DNA of 64,000 nucleotides from an uncultured Nitrososphaerota archaeon (GTDB taxonomy: Archaea; Thermoproteota; Nitrososphaeria; Nitrososphaerales; CADDZS01), in assembly GCA_963799845.1 (NCBI GenBank), contig CAWCYI010000006.1, positions 1,120,001 through 1,184,000 on the forward strand, given 5' to 3'. The notes beneath the pieces are model-generated. The model was not told the DNA's origin. It made no database searches and was given only the letters and a program-made list of their open reading frames with translations. A program made the position numbers and the translations under genes. The first letter of the stretch is position 1. Each line of letters opens with the position of its first letter. Shown piece by piece: positions 29,231 through 57,029 of the stretch.

Positions 29231-29279
29231 CGCTCTAACTTCCTTGCTTATCAAAAGAGACTATTCAGGTCGGTAACTT

Positions 29280-30368: not shown

Positions 30369-30472
30369 TCATCAAGACTGTTCTTGCGGATGCTAATATT
30401 CTGATTGGATTACTCAAGAGAAAAGTAGAGCGGAGATATCTTCCGGAGACTGCTTACCCACTAATGGAGAAT

Positions 30473-31480
30473 TTACTTAAAATTCGGAAGGATTTTCTTC
30501 GCGAATGTTCTGATTCTTTTCTTGTCGGGGCCTGATGGGAGCACGATCTGGTCCACACCTATCTCTTTGTACCTGTGGATGAGTTCGACGACATCCGACC
30601 AGTCGGAGCAAAAGTTCGTACTCTTCAGGATGACATCGTCCGGCAGGTCGGCGCCCATGTGTCCGATCTTTCTCGGATCGGGCTCGGAGAGGGCGTTCTT
30701 TTTCAGATTGCCTGCGTACTGCTTGTGCGTTTTCAAATAAGTGTCAGGGTCTTCCAATGTAAAACTTACTGTCAGGATTTTTTCCATTTTATCTGGATCT
30801 TTGCCGACACTTCTCGCACCCCGATCAAAACTAGGAAATAATACGTCTCGACATTTCTCCAGAGGGTTTCGGGAACCGACAGTAATCAGACCGTCGCCAT
30901 ATCTGCCAGAGATCTCAGCAAATTTTTCGCCAACTGCTGAAAAGTAGATCTTCAGATCAGTTCTCGGTTTCGTGTATAGGAAAATCTGCTTCTCCCTGAA
31001 AAATGAGCCGTCGAAATCAAAGTAAGAAGCACTTGTCCATAATTTTCGCATTAGCAGGGTCCCTTCAACTAACCTTTGGGCCCTTTCCTTCCACGGCGGC
31101 CAACCCCCCGGAAGAAACATCGCTTCATTGACCGCTTCTCCTGTTCCCACCCCCAAGAGAAATCTTCCGGGATACATGTTGTCAAGGGTAGCGGAGGCCT
31201 GCGCAATTATGGCAGGATGATACCTGGCACCTATTGGAGTGGTCACGTAAGGTCCAATCTTAATTTTTCTTGATGCTTCGAGAGAGGACGCGATGAGCGA
31301 CCAAACGTAAGCAGAGCGGTTGCCACTATCCATCCAAGGCATGAAGTGGTCGCCCAGCCAAGCGACGTCGAACCCCAATCTTTCCGCGAGAACCATAGCA
31401 TCTCGGAATTCCGTTGGATCTTTCTCGTTTTCTCCAATGTCCAGTGAAATCTTCAATCCTGTTTTGGATTTCCTCGTCAT
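30473..31480 (-). CDS. LLM-class oxidoreductase, F420-dependent glucose-6-phosphate dehydrogenase-like
   Basis: GDHFMPW, RYHPAIIAQASATL, YPGRFLLGVGTGEAVNE match the Fgd-like subfamily. Confidence 0.85.
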   Translation of the reverse strand: MTRKSKTGLKISLDIGENEKDPTEFRDAMVLAERLGFDVAWLGDHFMPWMDSGNRSAYVWSLIASSLEASRKIKIGPYVTTPIGARYHPAIIAQASATLDNMYPGRFLLGVGTGEAVNEAMFLPGGWPPWKERAQRLVEGTLLMRKLWTSASYFDFDGSFFREKQIFLYTKPRTDLKIYFSAVGEKFAEISGRYGDGLITVGSRNPLEKCRDVLFPSFDRGARSVGKDPDKMEKILTVSFTLEDPDTYLKTHKQYAGNLKKNALSEPDPRKIGHMGADLPDDVILKSTNFCSDWSDVVELIHRYKEIGVDQIVLPSGPDKKRIRTFAKKILPNFK

Positions 31481-31503
31481 AAGAGGCTGCCAATAACTCG
31501 TAG

Positions 31504-31509
31504 TTTAAA
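31504..31509 (-). promoter_or_regulatory. Putative TATA box
   Basis: TTTAAA 24-29 bp upstream of ATG 31480, consistent with a near-leaderless transcript. Confidence 0.4.
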
Positions 31510-31607
31510 ACCAGATAAAATTGTTCCGAGTGTGTCTTGTGTGAACTGAAAAATTGACTTTTTGATTCCAAAAACTGTTTTTAGCCGATCGATTCTCTGC
31601 GGAGTTA

Positions 31608-32399
31608 ATGGTACAAGAAAATTCAGAAAATTTGCTAGAACAGATTGAAAATTCTACGAGCGTCGGTAGAGCAAGGATCTGGGGTCTAAGCGGGGCAGGA
31701 TTTGTTTTGCGCTATCGAGGTGATGTAGTTTACATCGATCCCTGGCTAGTTCCCCCTGACGCAAAGAGAACAACTCATCGGGCGTACCCCATCCCTTTCC
31801 CGCCGGAAAAAGTTCGGAAAGCCAATGCTGTGATTTCGACCCATGAGCACGCAGATCACTGTGATGTCCCAACCATCGCAGGAATCGTAAGGTCAACGGG
31901 TGCCGTTTTTATTGGACCAAAATCTGCGACGGACAAAGCAATCAACGGGGGACTATCATCTTCGAAAGCGATCACAGTTTCTCCCGGAATGAAACTCGAG
32001 ATTTCGCCATCCTTCAACGTTCGAGTCTTTAGCTCGAGTGACCCGTACGAGCCACAGGCGGTGATGATACTCTTGGAAACACCCACCGGAAATATTTTGC
32101 ACAGCGGAGACACGTCCTACTTCGGGGGATTCAAGGAAATTGGTGACAGCTACAGCGTCGATGTCGCTCTTCTGAATTTCGGGAAGCAAATTCCGAACCC
32201 AGAGAAACCGTACTACATGAACGCTCAGAAGCTGGCAATGGCTGCCAGAGACCTTCGAGCGAAGATTGTAGTTCCGATGCACTGGAACCTCTGGGAGGAA
32301 ACAAAGGAAGACCCCAGCTCGATCGAGCCGATTCTAAGAATAGAAAGTCCGGGCTCACAATTCAGGGTCGTAAATTTCGGGGAACTTCTTCAGGTCTGA
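31608..32399 (+). CDS. MBL-fold metallohydrolase (UlaG lactonase-like)
   Basis: IDPWL, STHEHADHCD, HSGDT, VVPMHWN. Confidence 0.85.
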   Translation: MVQENSENLLEQIENSTSVGRARIWGLSGAGFVLRYRGDVVYIDPWLVPPDAKRTTHRAYPIPFPPEKVRKANAVISTHEHADHCDVPTIAGIVRSTGAVFIGPKSATDKAINGGLSSSKAITVSPGMKLEISPSFNVRVFSSSDPYEPQAVMILLETPTGNILHSGDTSYFGGFKEIGDSYSVDVALLNFGKQIPNPEKPYYMNAQKLAMAARDLRAKIVVPMHWNLWEETKEDPSSIEPILRIESPGSQFRVVNFGELLQV

Positions 32400-36245: not shown

Positions 36246-37067
36246 TTAGCTATTAATGAAGATTGGATGTATTCTCATGCCGTCCAGGTCGCAAAACTTT
36301 TTGCTTCTGGCTTCATCCTTGCTGTACTTTTTTCCGCATTTTGAGCAGCAGTAGATAACTTCCCTCGTCTTGGATTTGTGACGCAGTTCCGCTTTTAGAT
36401 CAGACACGGTCTTTACCATGAGGCAGGTTACGTACATCGACTTGAGCTGCGATAATTTCGACTTGAATAATTGCTCGTCATTCCTAGCAATGGTTGCGAA
36501 TGCTACGTCAATTACTGGGGTGACTGGATTGTATGGTTTGTCCTCATCTTTCATCCTGTTGATTCCCTCGGCGCGGATTTGCTTCGCCCTCTCGAACATT
36601 AGATCGATTGAGGTCTCGTCAATTTTGTTTGTCTGCATTTGAAACTGGGGATCGTAAATTGCTCGCTCGGACCAATTATGTTCTTTTATCTTCGCGTAAA
36701 CTACTGTCTCGAAATCGTCGTCGATCCGTTTCATCGCTTCCAGAAGGGCGTCCTTTTCCCGTGAGTGATATTCCGTCAGAATGTTCTGCAACTTTTCGAC
36801 ACTTGAGACCGTGTTGCAACGGAGGCCGATTCTCATTGTCGCGCCGTTTAGCCTCAGGTCGATGTGCGGGTCAGGTCGATTCTCGATTTCTTCCTTGCTT
36901 GTTTCGCCAGGCAGAGGGAGAGCGACCCAGTTCGAGTTCGACACGAGCGATACAATTTCCTCGTCTGGAATTTTCGGCAGTAAGTCTTGAAGTACGACCT
37001 CGGACAACCTGAAAAAAGGGATATAGTCGGATTTTCCGATCTGGATTTCCAAGTCGGAATTCTGCAA
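36246..37067 (-). CDS. Hypothetical protein with C-terminal zinc ribbon
   Basis: 273-aa ORF ending CCSKCG-x11-FCDLDG. Confidence 0.65.
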   Translation of the reverse strand: MQNSDLEIQIGKSDYIPFFRLSEVVLQDLLPKIPDEEIVSLVSNSNWVALPLPGETSKEEIENRPDPHIDLRLNGATMRIGLRCNTVSSVEKLQNILTEYHSREKDALLEAMKRIDDDFETVVYAKIKEHNWSERAIYDPQFQMQTNKIDETSIDLMFERAKQIRAEGINRMKDEDKPYNPVTPVIDVAFATIARNDEQLFKSKLSQLKSMYVTCLMVKTVSDLKAELRHKSKTREVIYCCSKCGKKYSKDEARSKKFCDLDGMRIHPIFINS

Positions 37068-37124: not shown

Positions 37125-37910
37125 GTGGTATTAAACCTGAAATCACGTGACCTCTTCGATCTCTCTGGCAAGTCTGCGCTTGTGACCGGGGGTGGAAGAG
37201 GAATAGGCAAGACGATGGCCACCGCGTTAGCTGAAGCCGGGGCCGATGTTGCAATCGCCTCGCGAAATCTAGAATCTTGCATTGAGGTCGCAGGAGAAAT
37301 ATCGAAGGCGACGGGAAAGACGGTTCTCCCGGGAAAGCTTAACGTGACAGACAGAGACAGTGTCCATGAGCTCGTAACTTCCGTAGAAAAAAAATTTGGG
37401 AAGATCGACATCCTCGTGAACAACAGCGGGTCGACCTGGGGAGCCCCATTTGAAGAGATGCCGTTTGACAAGTGGGAGCAGGTCATCAAAACAAACCTCA
37501 CTGGAACTTTTCTCGTGTCCCAAGCGGTCGTCCCGATAATGAAACGCGTCGGATGGGGGAGGATAATCAATGTGTCTTCGATCGTAGGACTGGTTGCGCC
37601 GCCGGATTTCATGAGCACCATTGGTTACACAGCGAGTAAAGGAGGCATCATTTCACTTACCAGGGAGCTCGCGGTGAAGCTGGCTAAAGACAATATTATT
37701 GTAAACGCGATCGCGCCGAGCTTCTTCCCGTCCAAGATGACGAGTGCCTTCGTGCAGAAGTTCGGAGACAAGATCAGGGATTCAAATCCCATGAAAAGGA
37801 TGGGCGAGGAGGACGATCTCAAGGGTGTAGTAGTCTTCCTCGCGTCGCAGGCAGCGAGTTACATCACCGGTCAGGTAATCGCGGTCGACGGTGGCTATAC
37901 CGCAACCTGA
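37125..37910 (+). CDS. Short-chain dehydrogenase/reductase (gluconate 5-dehydrogenase-like)
   Basis: TGGGRGIG, NNSG, YTASK, ITGQVIAVDGG. Confidence 0.9.
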   Translation: MVLNLKSRDLFDLSGKSALVTGGGRGIGKTMATALAEAGADVAIASRNLESCIEVAGEISKATGKTVLPGKLNVTDRDSVHELVTSVEKKFGKIDILVNNSGSTWGAPFEEMPFDKWEQVIKTNLTGTFLVSQAVVPIMKRVGWGRIINVSSIVGLVAPPDFMSTIGYTASKGGIISLTRELAVKLAKDNIIVNAIAPSFFPSKMTSAFVQKFGDKIRDSNPMKRMGEEDDLKGVVVFLASQAASYITGQVIAVDGGYTAT

Positions 37911-37939: not shown

Positions 37940-39067
37940 TCAATTCACTCTGTGCTTATCGACGTACGAATCATCGATTTCAATCCCGAGACCCGGCCCG
38001 TCGGGAATTTTCACGTACCCGTCCTTTGGTACTTCGATCGGTTTCTTCAACATCTTGTCATGTCCCCAGTTTAGGGCAGGAAGATCTATTCCATACTCGA
38101 CGAACGGCGCATTTGGAACAGATCCTATTAATTGCAGTGCCGCAGCGAGAGTGATCGCCGCGTCGAAGGAATGCGGAACAAACAGCTTGTTTGCTGCTTC
38201 GGCGAGAGCGGCGACCTTCTTCAACTGCAGGATTCCGCCCGACGCGCATACATCAGCCTGGATGATGTCAAAGCAGTCTCCGTCAATCAGTTCTTTGAAC
38301 CGGAAGAATCCGTTTTCGTCTTCTCCGCCTGCAATCTGGACGTCCACTTCTCTCGAAAGCCTCGCCAGATCTTCATGGGCTGCGTGATAAAGCGGCTCTT
38401 CCAGCCAGTAGACGTTCAGCTTTCCGAGTTCTCTCGCAGTTTCCAGAGCTCTTCTGTATGTCCAGAAGGGGCCGGAGAATGTCGCCGCCTGGTTTGCATC
38501 AACCATGATCTTCATCTCGTCCTGCACAGCATTCCTGACGGCCCTTATGGGCGCGACGTCTTTTTCCAGGTCTTCGCTGTGAATCCTGATTTTGATCGCT
38601 CTAAATCCCATCTCCAGATATTTCAGAGCGTCTGCGGCATGTTCCTCCGGAGTTTTCAGCATGCCCGTGCTTGCATACGCCATTACACGATCCTGGGCAC
38701 CGCCAAGCAGTTTGTGAATCGGCTTGTTACAGGCTTTTCCAATGGCGTCCCACATCGCCACCTCGACGCCCCAAAGATCTACCGTGTTCATGCTGTAGGT
38801 GATGCCGTTGAGAATACGGATGATTTTTTCAGTGCTGAAGAGATCGGTTCCCAGCACGAGATCTTTGAAGACTCGAGACTCTCCAACAATTTTGATTTCT
38901 GATCCGAATGAATTCTGCCAGCCGTAGCCTGTAATTCCTTCGTCGGCGTGGACTTTGATTAGAGTACCGTCGGCAGTTCTCTGCGTGACGTTAGGAAACC
39001 ACGCGGGATGGAACGGAGCGTCCAGTGGTAGGGAGACGGGAATGAATTCGACGGAGGAGATTTTCAA
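37940..39067 (-). CDS. Mandelate racemase/enolase superfamily enzyme (sugar-acid dehydratase-like)
   Basis: WDAIGK, KIRI, MVDAN, WLEEP, GGE, PHS, PDGPGLG. Confidence 0.9.
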   Translation of the reverse strand: MKISSVEFIPVSLPLDAPFHPAWFPNVTQRTADGTLIKVHADEGITGYGWQNSFGSEIKIVGESRVFKDLVLGTDLFSTEKIIRILNGITYSMNTVDLWGVEVAMWDAIGKACNKPIHKLLGGAQDRVMAYASTGMLKTPEEHAADALKYLEMGFRAIKIRIHSEDLEKDVAPIRAVRNAVQDEMKIMVDANQAATFSGPFWTYRRALETARELGKLNVYWLEEPLYHAAHEDLARLSREVDVQIAGGEDENGFFRFKELIDGDCFDIIQADVCASGGILQLKKVAALAEAANKLFVPHSFDAAITLAAALQLIGSVPNAPFVEYGIDLPALNWGHDKMLKKPIEVPKDGYVKIPDGPGLGIEIDDSYVDKHRVN

Positions 39068-39119
39068 ATTTTTTTTCGAAGTCAGATCAGGTGATTTTGA
39101 ATTTAATGCTTACAAGCCA

Positions 39120-40944
39120 TCAGGGAAAGATGCGAATGCACGGCCTCGTGAAAAGCTGCCAGTTTCCCGTAGACTTGTCATACTTTGAATTTACGAATAC
39201 ATGCCAGTTCTCATCATCAAGTTTTGGAAAGTCAGCCCTGTAACAGTATCCCGGCCATCGCGTCTCCTTCCGGAATATGGTGTGTCTCAAAACAGACTCG
39301 GCGGTCATTACTCTGTGGTGAAGCTCCCAAGCCCTTTGAAGCTGGTGCAAATCCTCAGCCGCGATGTGCGCCAGATCCTCCCTCAGCATCGTCATGAGTT
39401 CCAATCCCCGATTGAGGAGCATTTCGTTCGTCGTGTACATCGGCCCCCAGCCGCCGGCGTACTCATCCATTAACTTCTCCAGTCTAACGACGAACTGGTC
39501 AGCGTACAGGTAAGACGGGGAGATGGTTCCCTTCGTTATCAAGTTCCTCCCTAAGGAAAAATTCTTCAGCGGTTGGAATATCTCTTCCTTGAGTTTCGCC
39601 ACTGCCTTCTCCGAAACTTCAGGCAAGTCTGAATGATCCATCGCGTATGCGACCGCCGCCTTACCCGCCAGCCTGCCCTCGGTGAAAGAACCGGAAGAAA
39701 ACTTGTGGGCGGACCCGCCTATAGTATCGCCGGCACCGAACAGTCCTTCGATAGTGGTCATTCGATTGTATCCCCAGAAGTATTCCTTCGGGGAGACGTC
39801 CTGAGGGCCGCTGGCCCACGCTCCGGAGCATGTGGCGTGCGACCCCATGATGTACGGCTCTGACGTCTGTAGTTCAGACGGTCTTTTCTTCGGATCAATG
39901 TTTTGCGAAGCCCAAACTATAGTCTGGCTCATAGTCATGTCGAGGAAATCTTCGTGCCCGAGCTCCTCCTTCTCCCTCGTATCAAGAACTCTCTCGGTGT
40001 GTATGTAGATTGGCTGTCTGCCCGCCTTTATCTCTCTGAGCATGGCGTCATTTCGAAGACACGTGGGAAACGGTTTGGAATCCACGTAGTTGCCGTACAG
40101 CGCTCTCTGATCTTCAAGATACCTCAACTCATAATCCTCGCCGTACGCGTTTGTCGCTACGGCCTTCAAAGCGAGGAACCACGCACCTACGGGCCCGTAC
40201 CCATCCTTGAACCTAGTGACAACAAGCTTGTTTTCCATCTGCGTCATCTCGGCTCCCACTCCGATAATTAGGGCGTACGCAGAACCCGTGCTCCAGGGTG
40301 CATACCATGTTCTCCCCGCCCCCTCTCCCACCGATCTCGGTCGGAAGATGTGTGTCCCTCCTCCCGAGGCGACGATTACTGCATTGGCACGGAAAATGTA
40401 GAATGCTCCATCCCTTACGTGAAATCCGACTGCACCGGCGACGCGATTCGGATTTGTCTCGTCGACCAGGAGATGGGTGATCATTATTCTGTTGTAGATC
40501 TTGGTTGCAGCTTTGGTTGCAGCTTCGGCAACAATCGGTTTGTACGACTCACCGTGAATCAGGATCTGCCACCTTCCCTCCCGCTTGTAGCGCCCCGTCT
40601 GGCTGTCGTAGATTATGGGTAGGCCCCACTCTTCAAAGAGGTGCACGGTAGAATCGACGTGCCTTGCGATATCAAATTCTAGATCCTCCCTGACGAGGCC
40701 CATCAGATCGTTCCTAGTGTACCGTACAAAGTCCTCGGGGGTGTTTTCGTTCCACCGCATTCCCATGTAGCAATTGATTGCGGAGAGGCCCATCGCCACG
40801 GCCCCGCTCCGCTCAATGTGGGCCTTCTCGACGACGACCACGTTCAGATTGCGTCCCCAGTACCTCAGCTTCGTACGCGGCTCCGCATCCAGCCATCCCC
40901 CCTCCAATCACCAGGATGTCACAGTTCACGGTCCTCGTCTTCAA
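39120..40944 (-). CDS. aprA: Adenylylsulfate (APS) reductase alpha subunit; one extra base near 40866
   Basis: TTG at 40944 gives MKTRTVNCDILVIGGGMAGCGAAYEA. Removing one base joins it to RYWGRNLNVVVVEKAHIERSGAVAMGLSAINCY; also RFKDGYGPVGAWF, EPYIMGSH, HKFSSGS, RKETRWPG. About 607 aa. Confidence 0.93.
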
Positions 40945-40978
40945 GATCTATCACTTTTTCAGAGAAGGCAGCATGAAG

Positions 40979-41437
40979 TTACTTTTTGATTTGCGCAAGT
41001 GTCGGCAGCCCGCGTTCTATCTTTAGATATTCAGGTTCATGTGAAAGAAGCTGCGAGCGAATATCCTCGGGCTTTGGTTGGTCGTAGTTTTGAGGTGCCT
41101 TTATCGAGCCCCACTTTGTCGTCCGAATCGGAAACGTAAATTGATTCTTTGAGTTATCCCTGTATTTTATTTTCCAGTGAATCTCATTCTTCTCTTCGTC
41201 GCGAAGAACAGTGAGCTTGTGGTCCAAGGGAGCAAAATCTGCATAACCACGAATGTCAATTGCGTGTTGAGGGCACTCCTTCACGCAGGAGTAGCACTCC
41301 CAGCAGTAACTCGGTTCGATGTTGTAGGCCTTCCTTCCATTGAAGATGCTGTGAGTTAGGTGCATGATATCACTGGGGCAGATGTCGACGCACTTGCCGC
41401 ACCCGTCACATAATGATGCATACACGAATGTTGGCAA
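40979..41437 (-). CDS. aprB: APS reductase beta subunit (2x[4Fe-4S])
   Basis: MPTFVY-x3-CDGCGKCVDICPSDIMH, AYNIEP-x2-CWECYSCVKECP, RGYADFAPL. Confidence 0.95.
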   Translation of the reverse strand: MPTFVYASLCDGCGKCVDICPSDIMHLTHSIFNGRKAYNIEPSYCWECYSCVKECPQHAIDIRGYADFAPLDHKLTVLRDEEKNEIHWKIKYRDNSKNQFTFPIRTTKWGSIKAPQNYDQPKPEDIRSQLLSHEPEYLKIERGLPTLAQIKK

Positions 41438-41443
41438 TTTTAC

Positions 41444-42217
41444 TCACTTGTTTCTTTCGGAATTTTCTTTATTCATCGTGTCGGTTGATGCCTCCGCAGC
41501 TGGGAGAAGTGGCTCTACACCTGTTCTTTTGTCGATCTCTTCGTAAAGGAGAGAAATTGGTTTTGAGATCGCATGGAAGAATTTGGTAAATGGAGCTGTC
41601 GCGAGCAGTGTTATCACAAATGCCATGTGAACCCAGAACGAGCTCGAAACCCACTCCGATCCCATGGAAGAGTATATCGTTTGTTGCGCGATGAAACCGG
41701 TCACAACGGCCAGGAACAACGTCATGAGAAATACATCTGAGCGAGTCAAACGCCAGATCGGGGCGCCCTCGCGGTACCTGACATAGAACATTCCTAGAAA
41801 ACCAATAACGACGAGCACTCCGCCCACGTTGCCGAATAGCTTGACCGGATTGTAGAGCGGTAAAACGAGGTCAGTTGGATTTGTGAGGAACGCAAGAGTA
41901 GTGGATATTCCGAGGAAGACAAAGCCCCAGAAAATGGCGAGATGCGATACGCGTTTTGTCTTGCTGCAAGTTTCGAGAACGCGGAAGGCAAAGACTTCGC
42001 GTAACAAAATAGTAAAGAAACTTGGAACGATTTGTGACGATGAATTGGGTTCAGCGGTCTTCCCTTTCGTTCCCCCAGAGAAAATCTGCCACTGAAAGAA
42101 GTGATGCAGCGCACCCCCTTTCAACCTGTAAACTATGCCCAGAATAACAAGCAGAAGTACGATCAGACTTCCCGCGTCGATAACCAAATTGGGGATGGGC
42201 AGATTCATGAATGGCAT
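41444..42217 (-). CDS. aprM: AprM-like membrane anchor (NarI/QmoC-TM related)
   Basis: Multi-TM protein directly upstream of aprB; RVSHLAIFWGF and H-x10-PFTKFFH-x3-KP motifs. No Fe-S domain, so not full QmoC. Confidence 0.65.
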   Translation of the reverse strand: MPFMNLPIPNLVIDAGSLIVLLLVILGIVYRLKGGALHHFFQWQIFSGGTKGKTAEPNSSSQIVPSFFTILLREVFAFRVLETCSKTKRVSHLAIFWGFVFLGISTTLAFLTNPTDLVLPLYNPVKLFGNVGGVLVVIGFLGMFYVRYREGAPIWRLTRSDVFLMTLFLAVVTGFIAQQTIYSSMGSEWVSSSFWVHMAFVITLLATAPFTKFFHAISKPISLLYEEIDKRTGVEPLLPAAEASTDTMNKENSERNK

Positions 42218-42251
42218 TTGCTAGAACCTCAGCAATAAATCCGGGAAAATT

Positions 42252-43403
42252 CTACTCCGTAACTCTGACCCACTTTTCACTTCGGTTGGATTCAGCAATC
42301 GCGTCCATGATTAACATCGCTTTGTACCCGTCGTGAAATGTTGCGCCAATTGGTCCGAGCGGCTTGTCCGCAGCCAAGCACTCGATGAAGTGATTCAGCT
42401 CATTTGTAAACGAGTACTGCCAGGCAAAGCCCACTCCCTGATTTGTCCAGAACTTTTTCATGTGAGGATGATCCTTCATAACAGTCGGAACGCGTTTGAA
42501 TCCATCCAATCCTTTCTGCCCGTCCTTGATGAAAACTTCGAGCTCGTTCAGGTTTTCGAGGTTGAAACGGATCGTTCCCATCGTTCCGTACACTTCAAAT
42601 CGCAGGTAATCGATTCTTCCGGAAGTTAGCCAGCTGGTCTCGAAGAGGCCTAGCGCGCCATTTTGAAATCTCATGCATGCGATAGTTGTATCGTCCACAT
42701 CCACTTTGGTTTTCTCAGAAGACCCTTCCTGAACGGGTCTTTCTTTGATGAAGGTCTCTGAAGCTCCAGAGACAGATGAAACCTCACCTACGAGAAATCT
42801 AGCCAGATCGATAGCATGTGTACCCAGATCGGCGAGTGCACCGTACCCGGCAGTTTCGGATTGATGAAGCCATCTGATTGGAAAATTTGGATCGTCAAAT
42901 CCCCCATCAAAATTCAGATATGCACTTTTGAAGTAGTGTATTTTACCTAGAGTTCCGTTTTTGATCAGGTCACGAGCGAAGGTCACTGCCGGGAGAAATC
43001 GATAGTTGAATCCAGTCATGTGCTTGACGTGCGCTCTTTCTGCCACATCGAGCATCCTCTTTGCATCCGGTGCATTTTTTGCAAGAGGTTTTTCGCAAAC
43101 GAGTTGCTTGCCTGCTTCCGCCGCTGCAATTGTTGGTTCTGGGTGCATGGATGGCGGCGCGCAATTGTCAAAAATTTCTACGCCTTTGTCTTTGACGAGG
43201 TCCTCCCAATTGGAATAGGTTCTTCCAATACCGAACCTGTCAGCTTCAAATTCTACATTATCTTTCGATCTCCCTGCGAGAGCAACCAGCTTCGGTTTGA
43301 GTTTAGGAGGATAAAAATAACGTGAAAGATCCTGCCACCCGTACGCATGAGCCTTTCCGATGGAGTAGCCCAGAATTCCTACTCCAATTTCTCTTTCCGA
43401 CAT
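42252..43403 (-). CDS. Gfo/Idh/MocA oxidoreductase (levoglucosan dehydrogenase-like subfamily)
   Basis: GKAH, CEKP, GFNYR, GALADLGTH, VDVDD. Confidence 0.9.
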   Translation of the reverse strand: MSEREIGVGILGYSIGKAHAYGWQDLSRYFYPPKLKPKLVALAGRSKDNVEFEADRFGIGRTYSNWEDLVKDKGVEIFDNCAPPSMHPEPTIAAAEAGKQLVCEKPLAKNAPDAKRMLDVAERAHVKHMTGFNYRFLPAVTFARDLIKNGTLGKIHYFKSAYLNFDGGFDDPNFPIRWLHQSETAGYGALADLGTHAIDLARFLVGEVSSVSGASETFIKERPVQEGSSEKTKVDVDDTTIACMRFQNGALGLFETSWLTSGRIDYLRFEVYGTMGTIRFNLENLNELEVFIKDGQKGLDGFKRVPTVMKDHPHMKKFWTNQGVGFAWQYSFTNELNHFIECLAADKPLGPIGATFHDGYKAMLIMDAIAESNRSEKWVRVTE

Positions 43404-43539
43404 GAATTCGGGAAGCGACCCTGATTCAAACTATAGAAATCTATCGGTCAAGGTAGAAATTAACAGATGGGTACAAGAACGACGAGTAGGACAAACGTCC
43501 TAACTCTGCGGAGAGCTCGACAAGAATTATGAAATTGAG

Positions 43540-44649
43540 CTAAGTCTTGGAAAGGAGTGGAATAATCTCCTTGCCAATTCGGCGATAGTTCTCTCGGCTT
43601 GATACGAAATTGGCGAAGAAAATTTGGGTCGCTCCCTCACGAATGAATTTTTCGATTGTTGAAAGGCAGTCGTCGACTGTTCCTACAGCAATTATTTTGT
43701 CTATCACCTTTTGCAAGACCTCATCAGAGATATTGAGCCTCTCAACCGCCGCGGCGAGAGCATTGTCATATTCAGGTCCCGGTGTTGCAAACTGATAGTC
43801 AAGCTCTTTTGGAAGTGGCTGTCCTAGATCCTCTTCGCTGATGCCAAGGACTCCCAGCAGGTACTGGCTCAGAATCAAGTTGACCTTGAGGGCGTGTTTT
43901 ATCTCTCCCATCATCTCGGCCTTCTTTTTGTCGTCGTCGCAAATGATAGTGGGGATGCTCGCGATCAAATCAATTTCATCAATGGATCGGTTCGATTTTG
44001 ATGCCTCTGCCATAATCATCCGAACCTTCTGTCCGAAAACTTCGGGCGTGTTTTGAGATCCAGGATACCATCCGTCAGCCAGCTCCCCAACGAGGCGCAG
44101 CATCCCCTTTGATGAAAAAGCCCCGATGTAAATGGGGGGACTCGGTTTCTGCACCGGTGACAAACTCAGGTGCGCAGCGTTCAGCGAATAAAATTCCCCC
44201 GCGAAATTTGCCGGTCGGTCGTAGGCGGCGGCCCAAAGCAGTTTGATAACCTGGAGATTTTCCCTGAGACGCCTAATTCGGACACTTTTTTCTTCCCACG
44301 GAATCCCGTAGGGTTTGGTGTTCATTATTTCCCCCGCTCCTATTCCGAGGACGGCCCGCCCCTTGGTGAGGTTGTCCAGCGTTGCGACCGTGTTTGCGAT
44401 CTTTGCGGGATGCATTCTCTGAATGTCGGTGACGCCCGAACCCAGTTTGATTTTCTGAGTCTTCGCTCCGATGAATGCGAGGGTGGTCCACGTGTCGGTA
44501 ACTGCCTGGACTGGTCGGATGTCAACGAGGTGGTCAGGTACCCAGACGACGTCGAAACCCAGCCGCTCTGCCTCAATTCCGTCCGCAACAATGTCATCGA
44601 CATTGTCACCTACCAGTTCGCGAGAAAATGTCAGAGCTCTTCTTGTCAA
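43540..44649 (-). CDS. LLM-class flavin/F420-dependent oxidoreductase
   Basis: GFDVVWVPDH, LGSGVTD, TLDNLTKGRAVLGIGAGE, PVQKPSPPIYIG. Confidence 0.88.
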   Translation of the reverse strand: MTRRALTFSRELVGDNVDDIVADGIEAERLGFDVVWVPDHLVDIRPVQAVTDTWTTLAFIGAKTQKIKLGSGVTDIQRMHPAKIANTVATLDNLTKGRAVLGIGAGEIMNTKPYGIPWEEKSVRIRRLRENLQVIKLLWAAAYDRPANFAGEFYSLNAAHLSLSPVQKPSPPIYIGAFSSKGMLRLVGELADGWYPGSQNTPEVFGQKVRMIMAEASKSNRSIDEIDLIASIPTIICDDDKKKAEMMGEIKHALKVNLILSQYLLGVLGISEEDLGQPLPKELDYQFATPGPEYDNALAAAVERLNISDEVLQKVIDKIIAVGTVDDCLSTIEKFIREGATQIFFANFVSSRENYRRIGKEIIPLLSKT

Positions 44650-44679
44650 GTAACTAAAACCTGATTTCCTTTGAATCTG

Positions 44680-45813
44680 TTACTCGACGTCGACCCATTT
44701 CTGCGATATACTCGATTTCTGGATCGCTTCAACGACCTGTGATACCTTCCATCCGTCGTAGAAATCAGGTTTCACCTGAGATGAATTAACGACGGCGTTC
44801 AACACTTCGTAGATTTCGTTATTCAGAGAATCCTGGAAACCAGCACCCGAGCCCGTTGCCGGAAACGAAAAAGCAGACCCGTACGGATGAACGGGGCCCA
44901 TCATGATCGCGCGATGGCCCTGCAGATCCTTTGGATCTGAATTTGAATAGTAGCTCAACTCATTCGGCTTCTCGAAGTTGAAATAGACCGATCCCTCCGT
45001 TCCGTTCACCTCGAAATCCAGGTAGACTTTCCTGCCCAGCGAAGCCCAGCTCGTCTCGAGCCGCCCAGGCACGCCGTTGTCGAAATGCAGCAGTGCGCAA
45101 GTGTAATCGTCTACATCGACTGCGGCGGATTCGGATGAAGTGTTGAGAAGTTTCCGCTCTTTGATGAAAGTGTCTTGCAATCCGCATACGGATCGAATAT
45201 CGCCGATCAGAAATCTCGAAATGTCAATGATGTGCGAACCCAGATCTGCCAGCGCTCCGCCTCCGGCCCTTTTCGAGTCGTACCGCCAAGTAAAAGGCAT
45301 GTCTGGATTTGCGCCCCAGTCTTCCAGAAAACTCGTTCGGAATTGAGTGATTTTACCCAGAGCTTGGTCGTTGATGAGTTTCTTTGTAAGCAGGACAGCC
45401 GGGAGCCTGCGGTAGTTGAACCCCATAGCGTTCACAACTCCGGCTCGCGTCGCCGCTTCGTACATCCTCCTAGCGTCGGAAGAAGACGCTGCAATTGGCT
45501 TTTCGCACAGTATGTGTTTATGGTGTTCTGCTGCCTCTACTGCCACGTCTGCGTGCAGGTAGGTCGGGGCAACTATATCGACCAGGTCGACTTCAAGAGA
45601 TGAAGTGAGCGATTTCCAGTCCGAGAAATAACTTCCAAATCCCAGCCTTGACGCAGCTTGTGATGCTAGTTCTTCGGTGGCATCGGCAATTACAGAGAAT
45701 ACCGGCTTTGCAGTTTCGAACGAATGAAGCAGAGGCACGGACTCGTATGCCAAAACGTGGGCTTTCGCGATCGCACCGCCACCGACCATACCAATTTTGA
45801 TTTGTTTTTCCAT
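44680..45813 (-). CDS. Gfo/Idh/MocA oxidoreductase (levoglucosan dehydrogenase-like subfamily)
   Basis: GGGAIAKAH, CEKP, FNYRRLPAV, FLEDW, AGGGALADLGSH, GPVHPYG. Confidence 0.9.
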   Translation of the reverse strand: MEKQIKIGMVGGGAIAKAHVLAYESVPLLHSFETAKPVFSVIADATEELASQAASRLGFGSYFSDWKSLTSSLEVDLVDIVAPTYLHADVAVEAAEHHKHILCEKPIAASSSDARRMYEAATRAGVVNAMGFNYRRLPAVLLTKKLINDQALGKITQFRTSFLEDWGANPDMPFTWRYDSKRAGGGALADLGSHIIDISRFLIGDIRSVCGLQDTFIKERKLLNTSSESAAVDVDDYTCALLHFDNGVPGRLETSWASLGRKVYLDFEVNGTEGSVYFNFEKPNELSYYSNSDPKDLQGHRAIMMGPVHPYGSAFSFPATGSGAGFQDSLNNEIYEVLNAVVNSSQVKPDFYDGWKVSQVVEAIQKSSISQKWVDVE

Positions 45814-45921: not shown

Positions 45922-47214
45922 TTGCAAAGCGTTTTCGAGCATAGCCGAACTAATTTGGAACTGAAGATAACTGGCGTAAAGACTGCTACGGTTGTGGGCA
46001 ATTATTACTGGACTTTTGTCAGAGTTTATGCGGGTGACCTTTACGGGACGGGAGAAGGCTACACCGCGCCTCAGCTTGAAAACATAATTCTTGAACTGTC
46101 TCCGCTTATCATCGGAGAGAACGCGCTTGACCTGAATTATGTGTACGACAAACTGCGTTGGGCAGCCGTTCCCTCAGGAGTTTCTGGGATTACATACCAT
46201 GCGATATCTGCTATAGAAATCGCAATTCTAGACCTCGTCGGGAAGTATCTGAACGTTCCAGTCTACACTCTGCTCGGCGGAAAATTCCGAGACAAGATAA
46301 GGATGTATGTTGACACTCACGCCGGAGAATCCCTGCACGCCCGCGACAGAGCACTGCGTCCGGCCTACACCAAGTGGATGAAGGAACTCAAACCTAATTC
46401 GGAAGATGCCGACATGAGTCCCAACGACCCGATGTTCGGCAGATCTACGATTCAAAAATTCACTGAGGCGTACACGCCGAAGGCTTACTCGGATCGCGCC
46501 ATCAAGATGAAGAATGAAGGTTTCACGGCTATCAAATTTGACCTCGATATCCCGACACCGTATTCGACGAATTTAGGGCAAAAGTCAGGATCTCTGAACA
46601 ATCGAGAGATTGATTATCTCGCAGAGCTCGTCGGGGCCGTAAGGGAGGGTGTAGGCGAGGAACATGACATCATGTTCGACCTGCACTGGAAGTACGACCT
46701 GGGAAGCTCAATCCGTCTCTTGCGGGCGATGGAGCCGTTCGGAGTCATGTGGATCGAAGACCCGTTGCCTCCTGAAGATCTGTCGCTACTGGGGCGGTTA
46801 ACGAGAATTACGACGACCCCGATAGCAAGCGGAGAAAACGTCTACACGCGATATGGCTTCGCTCGATTGCTAGAGACCGGCATCCCGATAATAACTCCAG
46901 ATTCGATAAAAGCTGGAGGATTGACCGAGACAAGGATGGCGGCCGCTCTAGCGGCGATGGCCGAAGTTGTTGTTTCTCCGCACAACGTCAGCAGTCCGAT
47001 AGGTACAATCGCGCAGTCTCATCTTGCTGCGTCCATTCCAAATTTTGGAGTCCTCGAGTTTCACGGCAGGGACGTTCCAATCTGGTACAAGCTGACAAAA
47101 CACCAGTTGATCAAGGATGGATTCATTACTCTAAAGGACGAGCCGGGCCTGGGAATCGAATTGGAAGAATCTGTGGCAAAGAATTATGCCCTCGACGATA
47201 AATTTGATTTATGA
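45922..47214 (+). CDS. Mandelate racemase/enolase superfamily sugar-acid dehydratase (gluconate/galactonate dehydratase-like)
   Basis: LLGGKFRDKIRMY, KFDLD, FDLHW, WIEDP, SGEN, PHN, LEFH, EPGLG. Confidence 0.88.
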   Translation: MQSVFEHSRTNLELKITGVKTATVVGNYYWTFVRVYAGDLYGTGEGYTAPQLENIILELSPLIIGENALDLNYVYDKLRWAAVPSGVSGITYHAISAIEIAILDLVGKYLNVPVYTLLGGKFRDKIRMYVDTHAGESLHARDRALRPAYTKWMKELKPNSEDADMSPNDPMFGRSTIQKFTEAYTPKAYSDRAIKMKNEGFTAIKFDLDIPTPYSTNLGQKSGSLNNREIDYLAELVGAVREGVGEEHDIMFDLHWKYDLGSSIRLLRAMEPFGVMWIEDPLPPEDLSLLGRLTRITTTPIASGENVYTRYGFARLLETGIPIITPDSIKAGGLTETRMAAALAAMAEVVVSPHNVSSPIGTIAQSHLAASIPNFGVLEFHGRDVPIWYKLTKHQLIKDGFITLKDEPGLGIELEESVAKNYALDDKFDL

Positions 47215-47284: not shown

Positions 47285-47499
47285 ATGGCGCCCAAAAAAT
47301 CTCGTTAAGGCTGGAAATCTACAAGAAGCTTTGCGAAGCAAAGAGGGAGAAGGAGAGTTTCAGCGACGCAATCGAACGGGTGTTGGACAAGAAACCGAGC
47401 ATACTTGTTTTTTCAGGCTCTCTGAAACCAGACGACGCGGAACTAATGTTCATTGAAAGGGAAGCAAAGAAACTACGAAAAAGTACCAAATTCATCTAG
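47285..47499 (+). CDS. VapB-like (DUF217-type) antitoxin, frameshifted in an A6 run; not in the ORF track
   Basis: ATG GCG CCC A6 then, with one added base, ISLRLEIYKKLCEAKREKESFSDAIERVLDKKPSILVFSG...KFI*. The K-x3-ESFSD-x-I-x-R pattern is typical of this family. Confidence 0.65.
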
Positions 47500-48698
47500 C
47501 CAAGTTTCCCTTTTTTCGTCGCAAATGCGCAGATCGCGCCTATTAGTATGAAAAGCCCGCCCATCATTATGAAGGAATACTGGTAGCCCCAAAATCCCCA
47601 GATGAAACTTCCGAGCGAAGACCCTATTAGAATGCCCACGTCCTCGGCAGCACCGTATAGTCCCATGATTCTGCCCCAGTATCCTCTTGATACTGAAGCC
47701 GTCAGAAGCGAAAGAGTGAGTGGGGTAATTGTCGAATATGTGACGCCAAGAATCAGCGTTACTAAATCCACCTGAGCAACAGTTTGAGTCAGAGTTAGGG
47801 CAAGGTAACAAACACCGGTAGCAGCGAGGCTGCCGACGATCCAGCTTCTGGGTTTCCGGGAGCCCATCGACCCCAAGAATGGCTGGAAGATACCGGAAGA
47901 CAAACTGTATATGAAGAGGACGCCTCCGACCTCGACGGGGCTTGCCAAGAATTTGGGTTCTTTTGCAAGAATGTTGGGAAATAGAAGGCTGAAGAAGCCG
48001 TTACCGGATGCAGCCGTAAGGCCGACCAATCCTAGCACGATTATACCGATCAGCTTTAGTTGCTGTTCGGCTTGAAATTTGCCTGAAACCCCCGAAGGCT
48101 GTTCACCGATGTCATCCGCAACCACATCATTCTTCGAAGACCTGCTCCCCAGCCAGACCGGAATTGTGGACGCCAGTGTAATTGCACCTGCTATGATGAA
48201 GGATGGAGACGGTCCGAGAAGGGCACCCGACACTCCTCCAATGAGTGAACCGCTGGATGCGCCAATAGAATAAGTCAAGCCAAGCATGCCGAAAGCTCGT
48301 CCGCGGTCGGCATATTTCGAAAAGTGCGCGACTGCCAACCTTGGGAAAACACCCGCTCCTCCCAGACCATTTCCCCACAGGATTTCGATCCCGACCACTT
48401 CGGCGAGGTTCGCCGGTCGGGAGAAAAGAAAAATTGCCGACGATGTCAAAATAATTGCAATTAATGGAACTGAACCTTTGATTCCAAACTTGTCGAATAT
48501 GAAGCCCCATAGAGCCTCGAACACTAGAAAGCTGAGCCCATATGCGGCGTACACCAATCCGATATCAATTGCCGATAGATTGTTTGAAAGAAAATACAAC
48601 GGGAAGAGGGGAAGCGTCATTCCCCTAGCGAATTGGTACAGGAACAAGAACGAGAGTAGCGGGACAAATATTCGTAAGCCAGAAATCTTCCCAATCAA
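47496..48698 (-). CDS. MFS transporter
   Basis: About 12 hydrophobic segments; WGFIFDKFG motif A; RGRAFG. Confidence 0.9.
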   Translation of the reverse strand: MIGKISGLRIFVPLLSFLFLYQFARGMTLPLFPLYFLSNNLSAIDIGLVYAAYGLSFLVFEALWGFIFDKFGIKGSVPLIAIILTSSAIFLFSRPANLAEVVGIEILWGNGLGGAGVFPRLAVAHFSKYADRGRAFGMLGLTYSIGASSGSLIGGVSGALLGPSPSFIIAGAITLASTIPVWLGSRSSKNDVVADDIGEQPSGVSGKFQAEQQLKLIGIIVLGLVGLTAASGNGFFSLLFPNILAKEPKFLASPVEVGGVLFIYSLSSGIFQPFLGSMGSRKPRSWIVGSLAATGVCYLALTLTQTVAQVDLVTLILGVTYSTITPLTLSLLTASVSRGYWGRIMGLYGAAEDVGILIGSSLGSFIWGFWGYQYSFIMMGGLFILIGAICAFATKKGKLG

Positions 48699-48952: not shown

Positions 48953-50975
48953 CTAACTCGCCGGGACTACTGTGTTCAGTATTGCTGTCGTAGATTCTCC
49001 GGTGAACGTGGGGTCCAAAAGGAAGCTTTTGATTGCGCTCTTGTCATATGCGATTGAACCCGAGGCGAATGCCAGCTTTGGCGAAGCCAACCAGATGTAC
49101 GGAGCATCGTTGTAGACTTGCTTGTATGCTGCGGTGCAGAGATTGGTTAGCAGGGTCTGATTCGTGGTGGTAAAGAATCCGTTAACACACGCTGTGACAG
49201 TAGGGTTGCCATAGTTAGCATAATCTCCCCCCACACCATTCGGATTAACAAACGCAAGCCATGCATCAGCCGGAGTTGGCTCATTAGGTGCGAAGCTTGG
49301 ATAACCCATCCAAGTCATTTGGGCCTCTACTTTCGAATAATTTGATATGGATAATGCATTGGAACCATATCCCGAAACATATGGAAATGCTAGTTCTGTA
49401 GTGGGAATCACGCCAATGCTTATTGGGATGCCAATGACGCCAAGATCCGCTTGAATAACCTGCGCTCCTGATATACAGACACCACAGCCTGCTGCGACGT
49501 CGAAGGTAAGCGGTTGAAGGCTTGCCGTATTCACGCCAGATGCCTTCATGTCGGCCATCAGCTTCAGTAAGATTGTAGTTATAGGGCGGCAGGTTTCCTA
49601 GATCGTAATACTGGCTGAATGCCGCATACTCCGGTCCCAACAAGGGTGCGTAATCCCCAAAGAAAACAGATTGTCCAAAGCTCGTGTAATTTATTGCATG
49701 AACAATTGCTTGCCTGACGAGTGTGATATTCGTCGGATAACGTAGCGTGTTCATGCCTACACCCTCAATTATCATTGATTGGTTTGGTATGCTTGCGGCA
49801 CCGTATTTTGCCGGATTCTGTTGTATTAAAGGCCAGTCCTGCGCGAAAATAGTAGCTATTTGGGCCTGTCCCGTCGAAAGATCAGTGTATCTGACGAGGT
49901 CATCCGTCTTACCATAAACGAATATTGTCTTGTAGTGTCCTGGGTCGATGTATGGATCAGTTGCTATTTGAGCCGAAGTTAAATTACGACCCCAATAGTT
50001 TGGATTCTGCTGGAATTCTTCGTAACCGTTCTGGACATATTGCGTCATAATATATGGACCGGTGCCTGGGACATAGAGTGCAGAGGAGGACGGATCACTG
50101 AAGTCTGGATTGAAGCCACTGGAAGGAGTGCCAAATCCTCCGTTATTTATGATAAATTGGGAATCAACAATCATTCCAGGATACTGAACCAGCACTAAGG
50201 GCACATACGCAAATGGTACCACACGAAGAACCAGAGTGTTTGCATCAGAGCATGAAATCGGCCAGGCTGAATTCTGCATTACAGAAAGCAATTGCGAGGA
50301 GGGATTGACTATTCCAGTCCCATTCATCATGTCATCTGTGGAGACACCAAAGTTAACGCCTGTGAAATTGAAGAGTGGATAACTTTGCATAAAGTTCGAA
50401 GCATTTCCTGACACCCAGTAGACATTGTACCATTCGGCCCAGACCTGATAACAATTGAACGGATCACCGTTTGAAAAAGTGACGCCCTGTCTCAAATGAA
50501 AAGTGTAAATTGTCCCGCTTGCAGAAACGGTCCAATTCGCAGCAAGATCAGGTTCTGGCGTTACTGTCCCATTTTGATACAATGAATTCCCGTTGTCTGT
50601 TACAATACTTTGAAAGACAGACTCTAACCACCAATTACTTCCTGTAACATCGAAAAGCGCGGCGAATGGACTCGCCCCCAGTGTTGGCAAGAAAGCTTCG
50701 TCAACTGTTAGAGTGCTGGAAGGGGCAACGGAGCTGCTGCTTGATGATGTAACCGAGCTTGATGAGCTGATGGAAGAAATGGAACTGCTTGACGTTGACG
50801 ATGAAGAAGTCGAAGAGGAGCTAGTCGTGGTAGATGTGGTCGTGGATGTCGAAGCTGTCAGCAAAACTGCCGCCGCACCCGCGACTACAATAATTACAAC
50901 AATCACGACAATGATAGCTATTCTACTGATCGCGTTTAAAGTCAGAGTTTTTTTATGAATGCTCGATGAAGACAA
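48953..50975 (-). CDS. ABC substrate-binding protein family 5, split by one extra base near 49559
   Basis: YNYNLTEA joins MADMKASG when one base is removed (about 673 aa); PDLAANWTVS, LRQGVTFSNGDPF, GTGPY; N-terminal anchor plus Ser/Thr linker. Confidence 0.85.
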
Positions 50976-51124: not shown

Positions 51125-51937
51125 TTACCAGAGCAATAGCTTCTCAATCGACTCTTTCGCTCTCTTCACGACGCTGTCTTCGTTCATCAACCAGTATTTT
51201 TGGTTAAACAACTCTACAGAAACCGGCCCCTCGAATTTTCTCTCGCGCAGTTCTCGCATGTACTTCTGGAGGTCGATGACTCCCTCGAAGGGAAATACCC
51301 TGTCCGTATCCACGAGATTTTCTATCTTAATAGCCGGAGCGTCATTGACGTGGAAAGCCAGCAGTTGGTCGGCGAATCTTTGCGGGAGAGAATTGAAAGT
51401 TTCCCCGCTTCTATACATGTGAAACACGTCCAGCACGAGATCGATTTTTCCGTTCCACTTCTTTAGACTGGCAACTGTTTTTCTCAACGTGTTCGTGACC
51501 TTATTGTCGTAGCTCACAAATTCGTAGCCTAGTCTTAGGCGATGTTTCTCGGCGATCACGGAGACGTTCTCGATGAACTGATCAAATCTCTTCTCCGTGT
51601 CAGCCTCCCATCCCGGATTAAAGTTGGCTGGGTTGACCACGATAATGTCAGAGCCGACATCATTACACAGTGCGATAACAGTCTCCGCGCGTTTCAGAGA
51701 CTCCTCCATTTCGCCTTCGGCCATGATCGGATAGTTATCAATCGCGTTCAAACTCACGACATTGATGTCATTGTCTTGGAGTGTTGCCCTAAGTCTTGGC
51801 AATCCTTCCTTCTTTATGGTTGCTTCGGTCTTGTCGATGTCGAGTTCGATGTCAGCAAAATCGTGTTTTCGAGCGCTCTCAATGAATCTAATTGTATCAG
51901 TCGTCATGACCGTAGCCTGATTTATGCACTGTATCAA
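51125..51937 (-). CDS. Sugar phosphate isomerase/epimerase (IolI-like)
   Basis: CINQAT, GYEF, VLDVFH, FHVND, DRVFPFEG, VELFN. Confidence 0.88.
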   Translation of the reverse strand: MIQCINQATVMTTDTIRFIESARKHDFADIELDIDKTEATIKKEGLPRLRATLQDNDINVVSLNAIDNYPIMAEGEMEESLKRAETVIALCNDVGSDIIVVNPANFNPGWEADTEKRFDQFIENVSVIAEKHRLRLGYEFVSYDNKVTNTLRKTVASLKKWNGKIDLVLDVFHMYRSGETFNSLPQRFADQLLAFHVNDAPAIKIENLVDTDRVFPFEGVIDLQKYMRELRERKFEGPVSVELFNQKYWLMNEDSVVKRAKESIEKLLLW

Positions 51938-55793: not shown

Positions 55794-55800
55794 TTAGAGA

Positions 55801-56445: not shown

Positions 56446-56446
56446 G

Positions 56447-57028: not shown

Positions 57029-57029
57029 A

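Follow-up and report, generated by a model that had tools for sequence, protein, structure and literature searches.

The closest described counterparts of the genes examined here are the aprMBA(-sat) clusters of lineage I sulfur oxidisers such as Allochromatium vinosum and Thiobacillus, and of the SAR11 group, which encode an adenosine 5′-phosphosulfate (APS) reductase. In the parts of the literature consulted, sat is described as co-transcribed with aprMBA in Allochromatium, and a 2025 paper regards AprAB of SAR11 as likely to remove sulfite from organosulfur degradation and attributes that sulfite to suyAB, xsc and a sulfur dioxygenase. We analysed a stretch of 64,000 nt (the window; G000:C6:1120001–1184000) from the genome assembly of an uncultured Nitrososphaerota archaeon (G000; 4.60 Mb, 9 contigs), in which an aprM-aprB-aprA cassette stands in the middle of a string of genes for sugar oxidation. 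The cassette resembles the lineage I and SAR11 systems in its gene order, in the identity of AprA (64–72%) and AprM (24–31%), in an AprB without the loop of sulfate reducers and in the lack of qmoABC, and SAR11 furthermore shares with it a heterotrophic host in which no dsr was found. As in most loci examined, sat is not linked to apr in the genome of the window. The cassette differs from the described systems in its archaeal host, in a separate, sister clade of AprA and in its location inside a sugar operon. On balance, we consider it somewhat probable that a genuine AprM-linked cassette was relocated into a pre-existing sugar operon, and that it would oxidise sulfite via APS independently of its neighbours. 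A preliminary description of the window had instead proposed that the whole string serves the catabolism of a sulfonated sugar.

The string consists of seven open reading frames (ORFs), all co-directional on the minus strand, in the order Gfo1, LLM, Gfo2, aprM, aprB, aprA and MR1, and the ORF list of the window contains each of them at the position and in the order first described. The intergenic gaps, given there as 30, 136, 34, 6, 34 and 52 nt, were reproduced, except that the 34 nt between aprB and aprA are obtained only if aprA starts at the TTG at 40944; the longest literal ORF (39120–40907) starts at 40907 and leaves a gap of 71 nt. A mis-join of the cassette junctions was considered and rejected because a 5568-nt read-derived contig of run X1, possibly the source sample, spans the order MR1-aprA-aprB-aprM-Gfo2 (37940–43506) with zero mismatches. 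Neither direct repeats nor mobile-element genes were seen when the junction sequences at the borders of the cassette were read.

The family content of the window was assigned for 47 ORFs using Pfam and NCBIfam profiles with curated cut-offs. The FAD (flavin adenine dinucleotide) subunit AprA (39120–40944, minus strand) matches TIGR02061 with 893.4 bits (cut-off 641.75), and its solved relatives include the Archaeoglobus AprA 1jnr (680 bits) and a second AprA, 3gyx (586 bits). The iron-sulfur subunit AprB (40979–41437, minus strand) scores 165.4 bits with TIGR02060 (cut-off 135.65) and 91.9 bits with the APS-reductase_C tail PF12139, and two CxxCxxCxxxC motifs provide all eight cysteines for two [4Fe-4S] clusters. 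Direct reading of its sequence gives C-D-G-C-G-K-C with no insertion, so that the protein lacks the charged K-G-x-D/E-K/R loop, which the consulted part of Meyer and Kuever (2008) places after the second cluster cysteine in the AprB of sulfate reducers and lineage II. The product of aprM (41444–42217, minus strand), the membrane anchor directly before aprBA, has about five to six hydrophobic segments in a hydropathy scan and matches the membrane domain of QmoC with 74 bits, which is under the cut-off. It is homologous to the gene found directly upstream of aprB elsewhere, with 24–31% identity in bacterial and other archaeal loci and 58–80% in close archaeal relatives, and 41 of 80 loci have an aprM homologue (E<0.01) upstream of aprB.

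While the AprB motifs listed in the preliminary description are present, the YEARYWGR signature given there for AprA is not literally encoded, one frame reading ...YEAEVLG and the other ...KLRYWGR. The frame is broken by an extra base at 40866, which puts the FAD-binding N-terminus, with the GxGxxG motif DILVIGGGMAGCG encoded from the TTG at 40944 upstream of the extra base, in another frame than the rest of the gene. We compared the site with homologous loci and with contigs derived from the reads of four soil-metagenome runs of one study, two of which (X1 and X3) cover position 40866. Since the base is missing in 4 of 4 aligned homologous loci and in the read-derived contigs of both covering runs, the frameshift in the window is an assembly error and aprA is intact in the organism. 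Compared with the metagenome locus L104, the ratio of nonsynonymous to synonymous substitution rates (dN/dS) is 0.035 for AprA, 0.047 for AprB and 0.16 for AprM, at a dS of 0.6–1.0. For the sugar genes it is 0.03–0.08, and the overall dS from L103 and L104 is about 0.6–1.1. The aprMBA cassette is thus genuine and selectively maintained.

The nearest AprA proteins (74–93% identity) come from metagenome-assembled genomes (MAGs) labelled Nitrososphaerota, Thaumarchaeota, Nitrososphaerales or Marsarchaeota, followed by those of Thiobacillus, Sulfuriferula, Thiodiazotropha and Pelomicrobium (68–72%), Thermoplasmata (67–71%) and SAR11 (64–65%). A quick IQ-TREE phylogeny (LG+G4, SH-aLRT support only) was built from 93 rows, namely 86 loci, the window and six outgroup representatives; the latter are full-length AprA sequences from a search of a representative library that returned mostly fragments, and source labels are available for part of them. 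In this tree, the AprA of the window falls inside a 14-row clade of Nitrososphaerota/Marsarchaeota type with 99% support, which is the sister of Thermoplasmatota plus the lineage I Pseudomonadota (including Thiobacillus and SAR11) and not part of it, as far as a sampling without lineage II sulfur oxidisers and without Caldivirga/Pyrobaculum can place it. Two Deltaproteobacteria sequences of the sulfate-reducer type fall outside on a long branch. No HdrA-like ORF that might point to qmoABC is present among the 47 ORFs scanned. An AprM-linked APS reductase of the non-reductive type is therewith supported by sequence comparison. The earlier assignment to Apr lineage I stands with regard to the AprM linkage, the missing AprB loop and the position outside the Deltaproteobacteria type, and would have to be amended in that the AprA clade appears in this tree as a sister of lineage I and not within it.

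The comparison with related genomes reveals that the surrounding operon exists with and without apr. In G004, a genome of the same genus, the 12.3-kb contig C36 carries, collinear with the window, the genes for a cytochrome P450, a 273-aa protein, a short-chain dehydrogenase (SDR), MR1, Gfo2, LLM, Gfo1, MR2, an MFS transporter and a solute-binding protein; the encoded proteins share 58–87% amino-acid identity with those of the window, Gfo2 and MR1 are 78 nt apart and apr is absent. Similarly, contig C164 of G002, also of the same genus, harbors Gfo1-LLM-Gfo2-MR1 with a Gfo2-MR1 spacer of 13 nt and no apr in between. The segment that both genomes lack between Gfo2 and MR1 corresponds to positions 39068–42251 (minus strand) of the window, i.e. 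the cassette and its short flanking spacers. G004 does carry aprMBA (AprA 91% identical) on another contig, where its neighbours are unrelated to this sugar operon. Because the sugar genes are contiguous without apr in G004 and G002, the operon appears to be older than, and independent of, the association with the cassette. We further inspected 80 aprA loci (one-per-species genomes, at most 10 kb on each side), none of which has a homologue of Gfo1, LLM, Gfo2, MR1 or MR2 (E≤1e-10, coverage of at least 50%) nearby. The aprA gene was detected in 4 of 61 genomes including that of the window (the window's own genome, 1 of 6 of the same genus, 2 of 12 in its family and a further one within the order), and aprB in 3 of 13 family genomes (G000, G004 and G010).

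The embedded arrangement is limited to close relatives, namely two short metagenome contigs and a second copy in G000 itself. L103 carries MR2-Gfo1-LLM-Gfo2-AprM-AprB, and L104 carries Gfo2-AprM-AprB-AprA-MR1 with a 93% identical AprA. Among eight metagenome loci with an AprM at least 58% identical, these linkages account for the two with Gfo2 immediately upstream; two are too short to judge, and the remaining four (L105, L106, L107 and L108) extend at least 1.1 kb upstream with no Gfo2. The second copy (L096) lies on G000 C3:58472–65254 and comprises the 3′ part of aprM, aprB, aprA, MR1, the SDR gene and the gene of the 273-aa protein, so that the apr-MR1 junction is kept. Its nucleotide identity is 82–84%; in-frame stops occur in it, and 3960 nt of it show 56 gap openings. 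We read this copy as a decayed duplicate, although it may instead be an insufficiently polished contig of a relative binned together with G000. C3:1–7262 repeats C2:29064–36319 at 99% identity. The synteny that the preliminary description had suggested looking for in related genomes is thus confined to L103, L104 and the C3 copy. The simplest history, as suggested by these gene orders, would be that the three-gene cassette moved into the Gfo2-MR1 spacer in one subclade of the genus.

Levoglucosan is degraded in the described pathway by a levoglucosan dehydrogenase and xylose-isomerase-like TIM-barrel enzymes, and F420-type LLM proteins or enolase-type dehydratases are not known to belong to it. 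The two Gfo/Idh/MocA dehydrogenases Gfo1 (44680–45813) and Gfo2 (42252–43403), both on the minus strand, have LevoglcsnDh as their best curated match, with 394 and 299 bits, respectively, under a cut-off of 650. Their best solved relative is likewise a levoglucosan dehydrogenase (6a3f; 322 and 259.5 bits), and a scyllo-inositol/L-glucose dehydrogenase is matched with 199 and 165 bits. Levoglucosan or scyllo-inositol dehydrogenases are also the best solved relatives of a third such protein, Gfo3 (14193–15335). The luciferase-like oxidoreductase LLM (43540–44649, minus strand) is nearest to F420-dependent subfamilies, with profile scores of 138 bits for TIGR03560, 131 for Mer and 53 for SsuD, all under their cut-offs, and with 101 bits for the solved F420-dependent Mer as compared to 39.8 bits for 7oh2, which we take to be the SmoC structure, and 32.9 bits for SsuD. 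MR1 (37940–39067, minus strand), assigned by profiles, structure match and synteny as an enolase-superfamily sugar-acid dehydratase, scores 180 and 159 bits with the arabinonate and galactonate dehydratase models, again under the cut-offs, and 172 bits with the galactonate dehydratase 5olc. Its start codon at 39067 is TTG, whereas an ATG follows the same A-run in G004 and L104; the difference may be a true substitution or a small assembly error. The locus hence resembles levoglucosan and 3-keto-glycoside pathways in the best matches of Gfo1 and Gfo2 and in two xylose-isomerase-like TIM-barrel genes of the window (15359–16135 and 51125–51937), and differs from them in its sub-threshold scores and in the additional F420-type LLM and enolase-type dehydratases. 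The genes around the cassette probably constitute an independent catabolic unit for neutral or anhydro sugars or cyclitols, as judged from these similarities.

The likeness to sulfoquinovose pathways (GH188/YihQ, SmoC, sulfo-Entner-Doudoroff) is one of general folds only (Gfo/Idh/MocA, luciferase-like, dehydratase, aldolase, SDR). The preliminary description had pointed to GH188 for comparison with the Gfo genes at 42252, 44680 and 14193, and a relationship is not supported: the GH188 sulfoquinovosidase FlSqgA (8qc2/8qc8, as identified in its paper) appears, as 8qc2, with Gfo1 only, at 33.9 bits and rank 59 of the 60 matches listed (65 matched), and GH188 is absent from the matches of Gfo2 (58 at E≤1e-6) and of Gfo3. 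Nor is a particular resemblance of LLM to SmoC or SsuD supported, the protein being closer to F420 enzymes. Among the 47 window ORFs, no GH31 sulfoquinovosidase was found (no genome-wide search for GH31 was made), and neither a flavin reductase, sulfo-lyase, Xsc or TauE nor any other recognised desulfonating enzyme. Besides lacking GH188- or SmoC-level similarity and a sulfo-lyase or flavin reductase at the locus, it differs from the sulfoquinovose systems in that the link to apr is not conserved, sugar genes and sulfite genes being separate in G004 and G002 and unlinked in all 80 loci. Elsewhere in the genome, C4:1335222–1336669 (L118 15223–16670) encodes a split dehydratase pair of SuyAB-like size, composed of a SAF protein (94 aa) and a GD_AH protein (390 aa), next to genes for a KDG-type (2-keto-3-deoxygluconate) aldolase, a protein like lactaldehyde dehydrogenase and a further enolase-type dehydratase. 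The best curated match is galactarate dehydratase, far under the cut-off, and for the SuyB-like protein the protein Atlas yields only generic UxaA/galactarate-dehydratase clusters. Possible substrates of the pair are 6-deoxy sugars or sulfolactate. SuyB-like genes occur in G000, G004 and G003 and apr in G000, G004 and G010, an overlap that is uninformative.

The genes that more commonly accompany apr are those of sulfur metabolism. In 13 of 86 loci the gene that immediately follows aprA is sat, and 9 of these loci belong to the 14 rows of the archaeal clade; in L010 the order aprM-aprB-aprA-sat continues into an APS kinase gene (cysC). Seven archaeal loci have a conserved set of neighbours beside apr-sat, which in L011 comprises, by Pfam, HdrC-, HdrB- and HdrA-like proteins, two DsrE-family proteins, a lipoate-ligase-like (LplA) protein and a paralogue of AprM. 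We take this set to match the sHdr-type sulfur-oxidation system, and sHdr-type sulfur oxidation yields sulfite. An sHdr-like/DsrE/lipoate-ligase-like cluster beside apr-sat is seen in L011 (1242–8172), L014, L030, L034, L108 and L117; in at least L011, L108 and L117 it contains the AprM paralogue, which may be the membrane anchor of that system. Because apr-sat adjoins sHdr/DsrE-type genes in these seven related loci, the context by analogy favours an oxidative direction for the archaeal clade. The window's genome shares with the MAGs that carry apr-sat-sHdr (Nitrososphaerales A_CRE_07, Marsarchaeota G1 and Sysuiplasma) the same or a sister Apr clade and the aprMBA order, and differs from them in that sHdrB, sHdrC, DsrE and LplA homologues are lacking and sat is not adjacent. 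Unlike most of the archaeal clade, it has lost the apr-linked sat, and only a housekeeping-type sat is left.

No sat, dsr or qmoAB-like gene was found among the 47 ORFs of the window, in agreement with the preliminary description, and the genome search that it had called for located a single sat at C6:1522143–1522769, about 361 kb from apr and sharing 41% identity with the sat that adjoins apr in L010, and no dsrA, in an assembly rated 86.7% complete. This sat is part of a cluster (C6:1519500–1525200; L097 7522–13103) with an alkaline-phosphatase/phosphodiesterase-family gene and an APS kinase gene, adjoined by a divergent gene for a fusion of ComA (phosphosulfolactate synthase) and MarR. Homologues of ComA were found in 12 of 13 genomes of the family, frequently close to sat, and a CysH-type reductase of 3′-phosphoadenosine 5′-phosphosulfate or APS in 0 of 13; the sulfite supply of ComA is not explained by the latter enzyme. 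The NIR_SIR family was not found in G000 and is present in 2 of the 13 (the tallies of ComA and NIR_SIR include the unpublished genome G001). Since G000 yielded neither NIR_SIR nor dsrA, assimilatory reduction of sulfate via Apr to sulfide was rejected. Genome-wide, G000 has essentially no sulfatases and encodes three TauE-family exporters and six sulfite-oxidase-fold molybdoenzymes.

Under the explanation that we favour, the cassette would encode a membrane-anchored, presumably quinone-linked APS reductase of the archaeal sister clade of lineage I, which was relocated exactly between Gfo2 and MR1 in a species-level lineage of a heterotrophic soil archaeon of Nitrososphaerales type. AprBA would convert sulfite and AMP to APS, AprM would pass the two electrons to the quinone pool, and the unlinked Sat would turn APS and pyrophosphate into ATP and sulfate. 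Sulfite would thereby be disposed of and some energy gained, in line with the proposal for SAR11. Co-expression with the sugar genes is then best read as a consequence of the landing site and not as evidence for a sulfo-sugar pathway.

Several observations weigh against this explanation. The embedded arrangement recurs, in L103 and L104 at a dS of about 1 and in the C3 copy; it is thus not very recent, has been retained and might be under selection. Only 34 and 52 nt separate apr from its neighbours, so that an archaeal promoter in front of aprM would hardly find space, and reading the spacers by eye disclosed no T-run terminator after aprA. Candidate A/T-rich TATA-like hexamers precede Gfo2 by about 30 nt and Gfo1 by about 42 nt, and the 34-nt spacer in front of aprM has none at a suitable position. 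Owing to the short gaps and the lack of a T-run, apr is probably co-transcribed with Gfo2 and MR1. Every curated-family match of the sugar genes is below its cut-off, so that their substrates are only predicted. A tblastn search of G000 (E≤1e-5) gave no counterparts of HdrB, HdrC, DsrE or LplA and only weak HdrA-like matches, and genome-wide there is no Xsc above the cut-off, no TauD and no cysteine dioxygenase. A clear sulfite source is thus not seen in G000, with the reservation that, at the completeness of this assembly, genome-wide absences are provisional. Finally, because, according to the consulted part of Meyer and Kuever (2008), oxidative and reductive Apr enzymes hardly differ in their active sites, the catalytic direction cannot be read from the sequence.

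The proposal of the preliminary description, in which a sulfonated sugar would be oxidised and desulfonated by the Gfo, LLM and enolase-type enzymes and the sulfite so liberated would be oxidised in turn by AprMBA, draws on the tight, co-directional spacing of the seven genes, on an arrangement common to L103 and L104 with all genes under purifying selection, on the decayed C3 duplicate that keeps the apr-MR1 junction, on a window rich in glycosidases of NAD-dependent oxidation-elimination chemistry (three GH4), on the SuyAB-sized pair of SAF and GD_AH elsewhere in the genome and on the role suggested for SAR11 AprAB in the consulted part of the 2025 paper. It is difficult to reconcile with a sugar operon whose genes in G004 and G002 are conserved and adjoin each other with no apr between them, with the other neighbours that apr has in 80 of 80 genome loci and in L105 to L108, with Gfo1, Gfo2 and Gfo3 that are far from GH188 and closer to levoglucosan and scyllo-inositol dehydrogenases, with an LLM that matches Mer much better than SmoC or SsuD, with the lack of a flavin reductase, sulfo-lyase, Xsc or TauE in the window and with the SuyB-like gene, which accompanies apr only in G000 and G004, G003 having the SuyB-like gene only and G010 apr only. 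We hence regard a single sulfo-sugar system as improbable, and find it just as doubtful that the operon of one soil Thaumarchaeota subclade degrades a sulfonated or otherwise sulfite-yielding sugar and that aprMBA was recruited and kept for that task. If true, it would constitute an archaeal sulfo-sugar pathway assembled from levoglucosan-dehydrogenase-like, F420-LLM and enolase-type enzymes with energy-conserving sulfite oxidation built in.

A reductive role of AprMBA, in which quinol electrons would reduce the APS made by Sat to sulfite for biosynthesis, e.g. for ComA-type phosphosulfolactate synthases, is unlikely as well, if less so. ComA requires sulfite, is nearly universal in the family and adjoins sat-cysC in G000, while no CysH-type reductase was found in any of the 13 genomes; L010 joins aprM-aprB-aprA-sat to cysC, and the similarity of the active sites noted above would permit either direction. 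Set against this, only 3 of the 13 family genomes have apr, as compared to 12 of 13 with ComA, so that ComA does not generally depend on Apr; furthermore, the AprA clade groups with oxidative AprM-linked enzymes, and apr-sat lies beside the sHdr/DsrE-type genes in the seven related loci. Roughly weighed, we hold the oxidative direction of Apr to be quite probable as compared to the reductive one. The aprA frameshift in the window, the gap openings and in-frame stops of the C3 copy and the patchy occurrence of apr might in addition suggest functionless, decaying passengers of a rearrangement. This is very improbable given that the read-derived contigs of both covering runs lack the extra base, that dN/dS is 0.03–0.16 and that the eight cluster cysteines and the FAD motif are all present.

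The genes that flank the string extend the cluster conserved in G004. On the one side follow the SDR gene (37125–37910, plus strand; 81% identity and same position in G004), the gene of the 273-aa protein (36246–37067, minus strand; 61% identity in G004 and 76% in the C3 copy, no Pfam family and no usable match in the protein Atlas) and, collinear in G004 and recognised by its profile, the cytochrome P450 gene (34859–36202, minus strand). On the other side, MR2, a second enolase-superfamily dehydratase (45922–47214, plus strand; 87% identity in G004), is divergent from Gfo1 and is followed by the MFS transporter (47496–48698, minus strand; profile and synteny) and by a family-5 solute-binding protein (48953–50975, minus strand), which is present as two overlapping ORFs in the window and as a single ORF of 668 aa in G004. 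Besides this gene, others of the window at 8607–10067 and 55801–57028 seem to be split into two ORFs; among them, an aldehyde dehydrogenase covers profile positions 1–198 and 236–461, and two ORFs overlap in the hisH region. All three cases may represent additional indel errors of the assembly, which could also depress its completeness score. Positions 16438–32399 form a dense carbohydrate island with three GH4 genes, GH2, a GH78 alpha-L-rhamnosidase, a DHDPS-family aldolase, a D-serine-dehydratase-like pyridoxal-phosphate enzyme, a second LLM and a metallo-beta-lactamase-fold protein, and a complete his operon is located at 54279–60469. Two families of short repeats (about 130–250 nt, dozens of copies each, 75–92% identity), found genome-wide on C1, C4, C6 and C7 and exemplified by C3:16725–16887 and C3:55603–55846, resemble miniature mobile elements, and the search disclosed none of their copies within the window.

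No published description of this Apr clade or of this arrangement was found in the literature searched, where supplementary tables may list the genes. A paper on the Gagatemarchaeaceae and other heterotrophic terrestrial Thaumarchaeota describes, in the part consulted, soil lineages of similar G+C content (46–48%) with many paralogues of F420-dependent LLM proteins, and its main text makes no mention of apr, adenylyl, sulfite, sulfate or sulfonate; we do not claim that the window belongs to the genomes of that paper. For the interpretation of gene neighbourhoods in general, the locus calls for caution, as a tight, co-directional and even conserved string has apparently come about by a cassette landing in an operon. 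For the archaea themselves, the range of AprM-type APS reductases is widened to heterotrophic soil lineages of Nitrososphaerales type that do not oxidise ammonia, here in a genome in which neither Dsr nor sHdr was found, and this hints that the disposal of sulfite through APS proposed for SAR11 may also take place in soil archaea.

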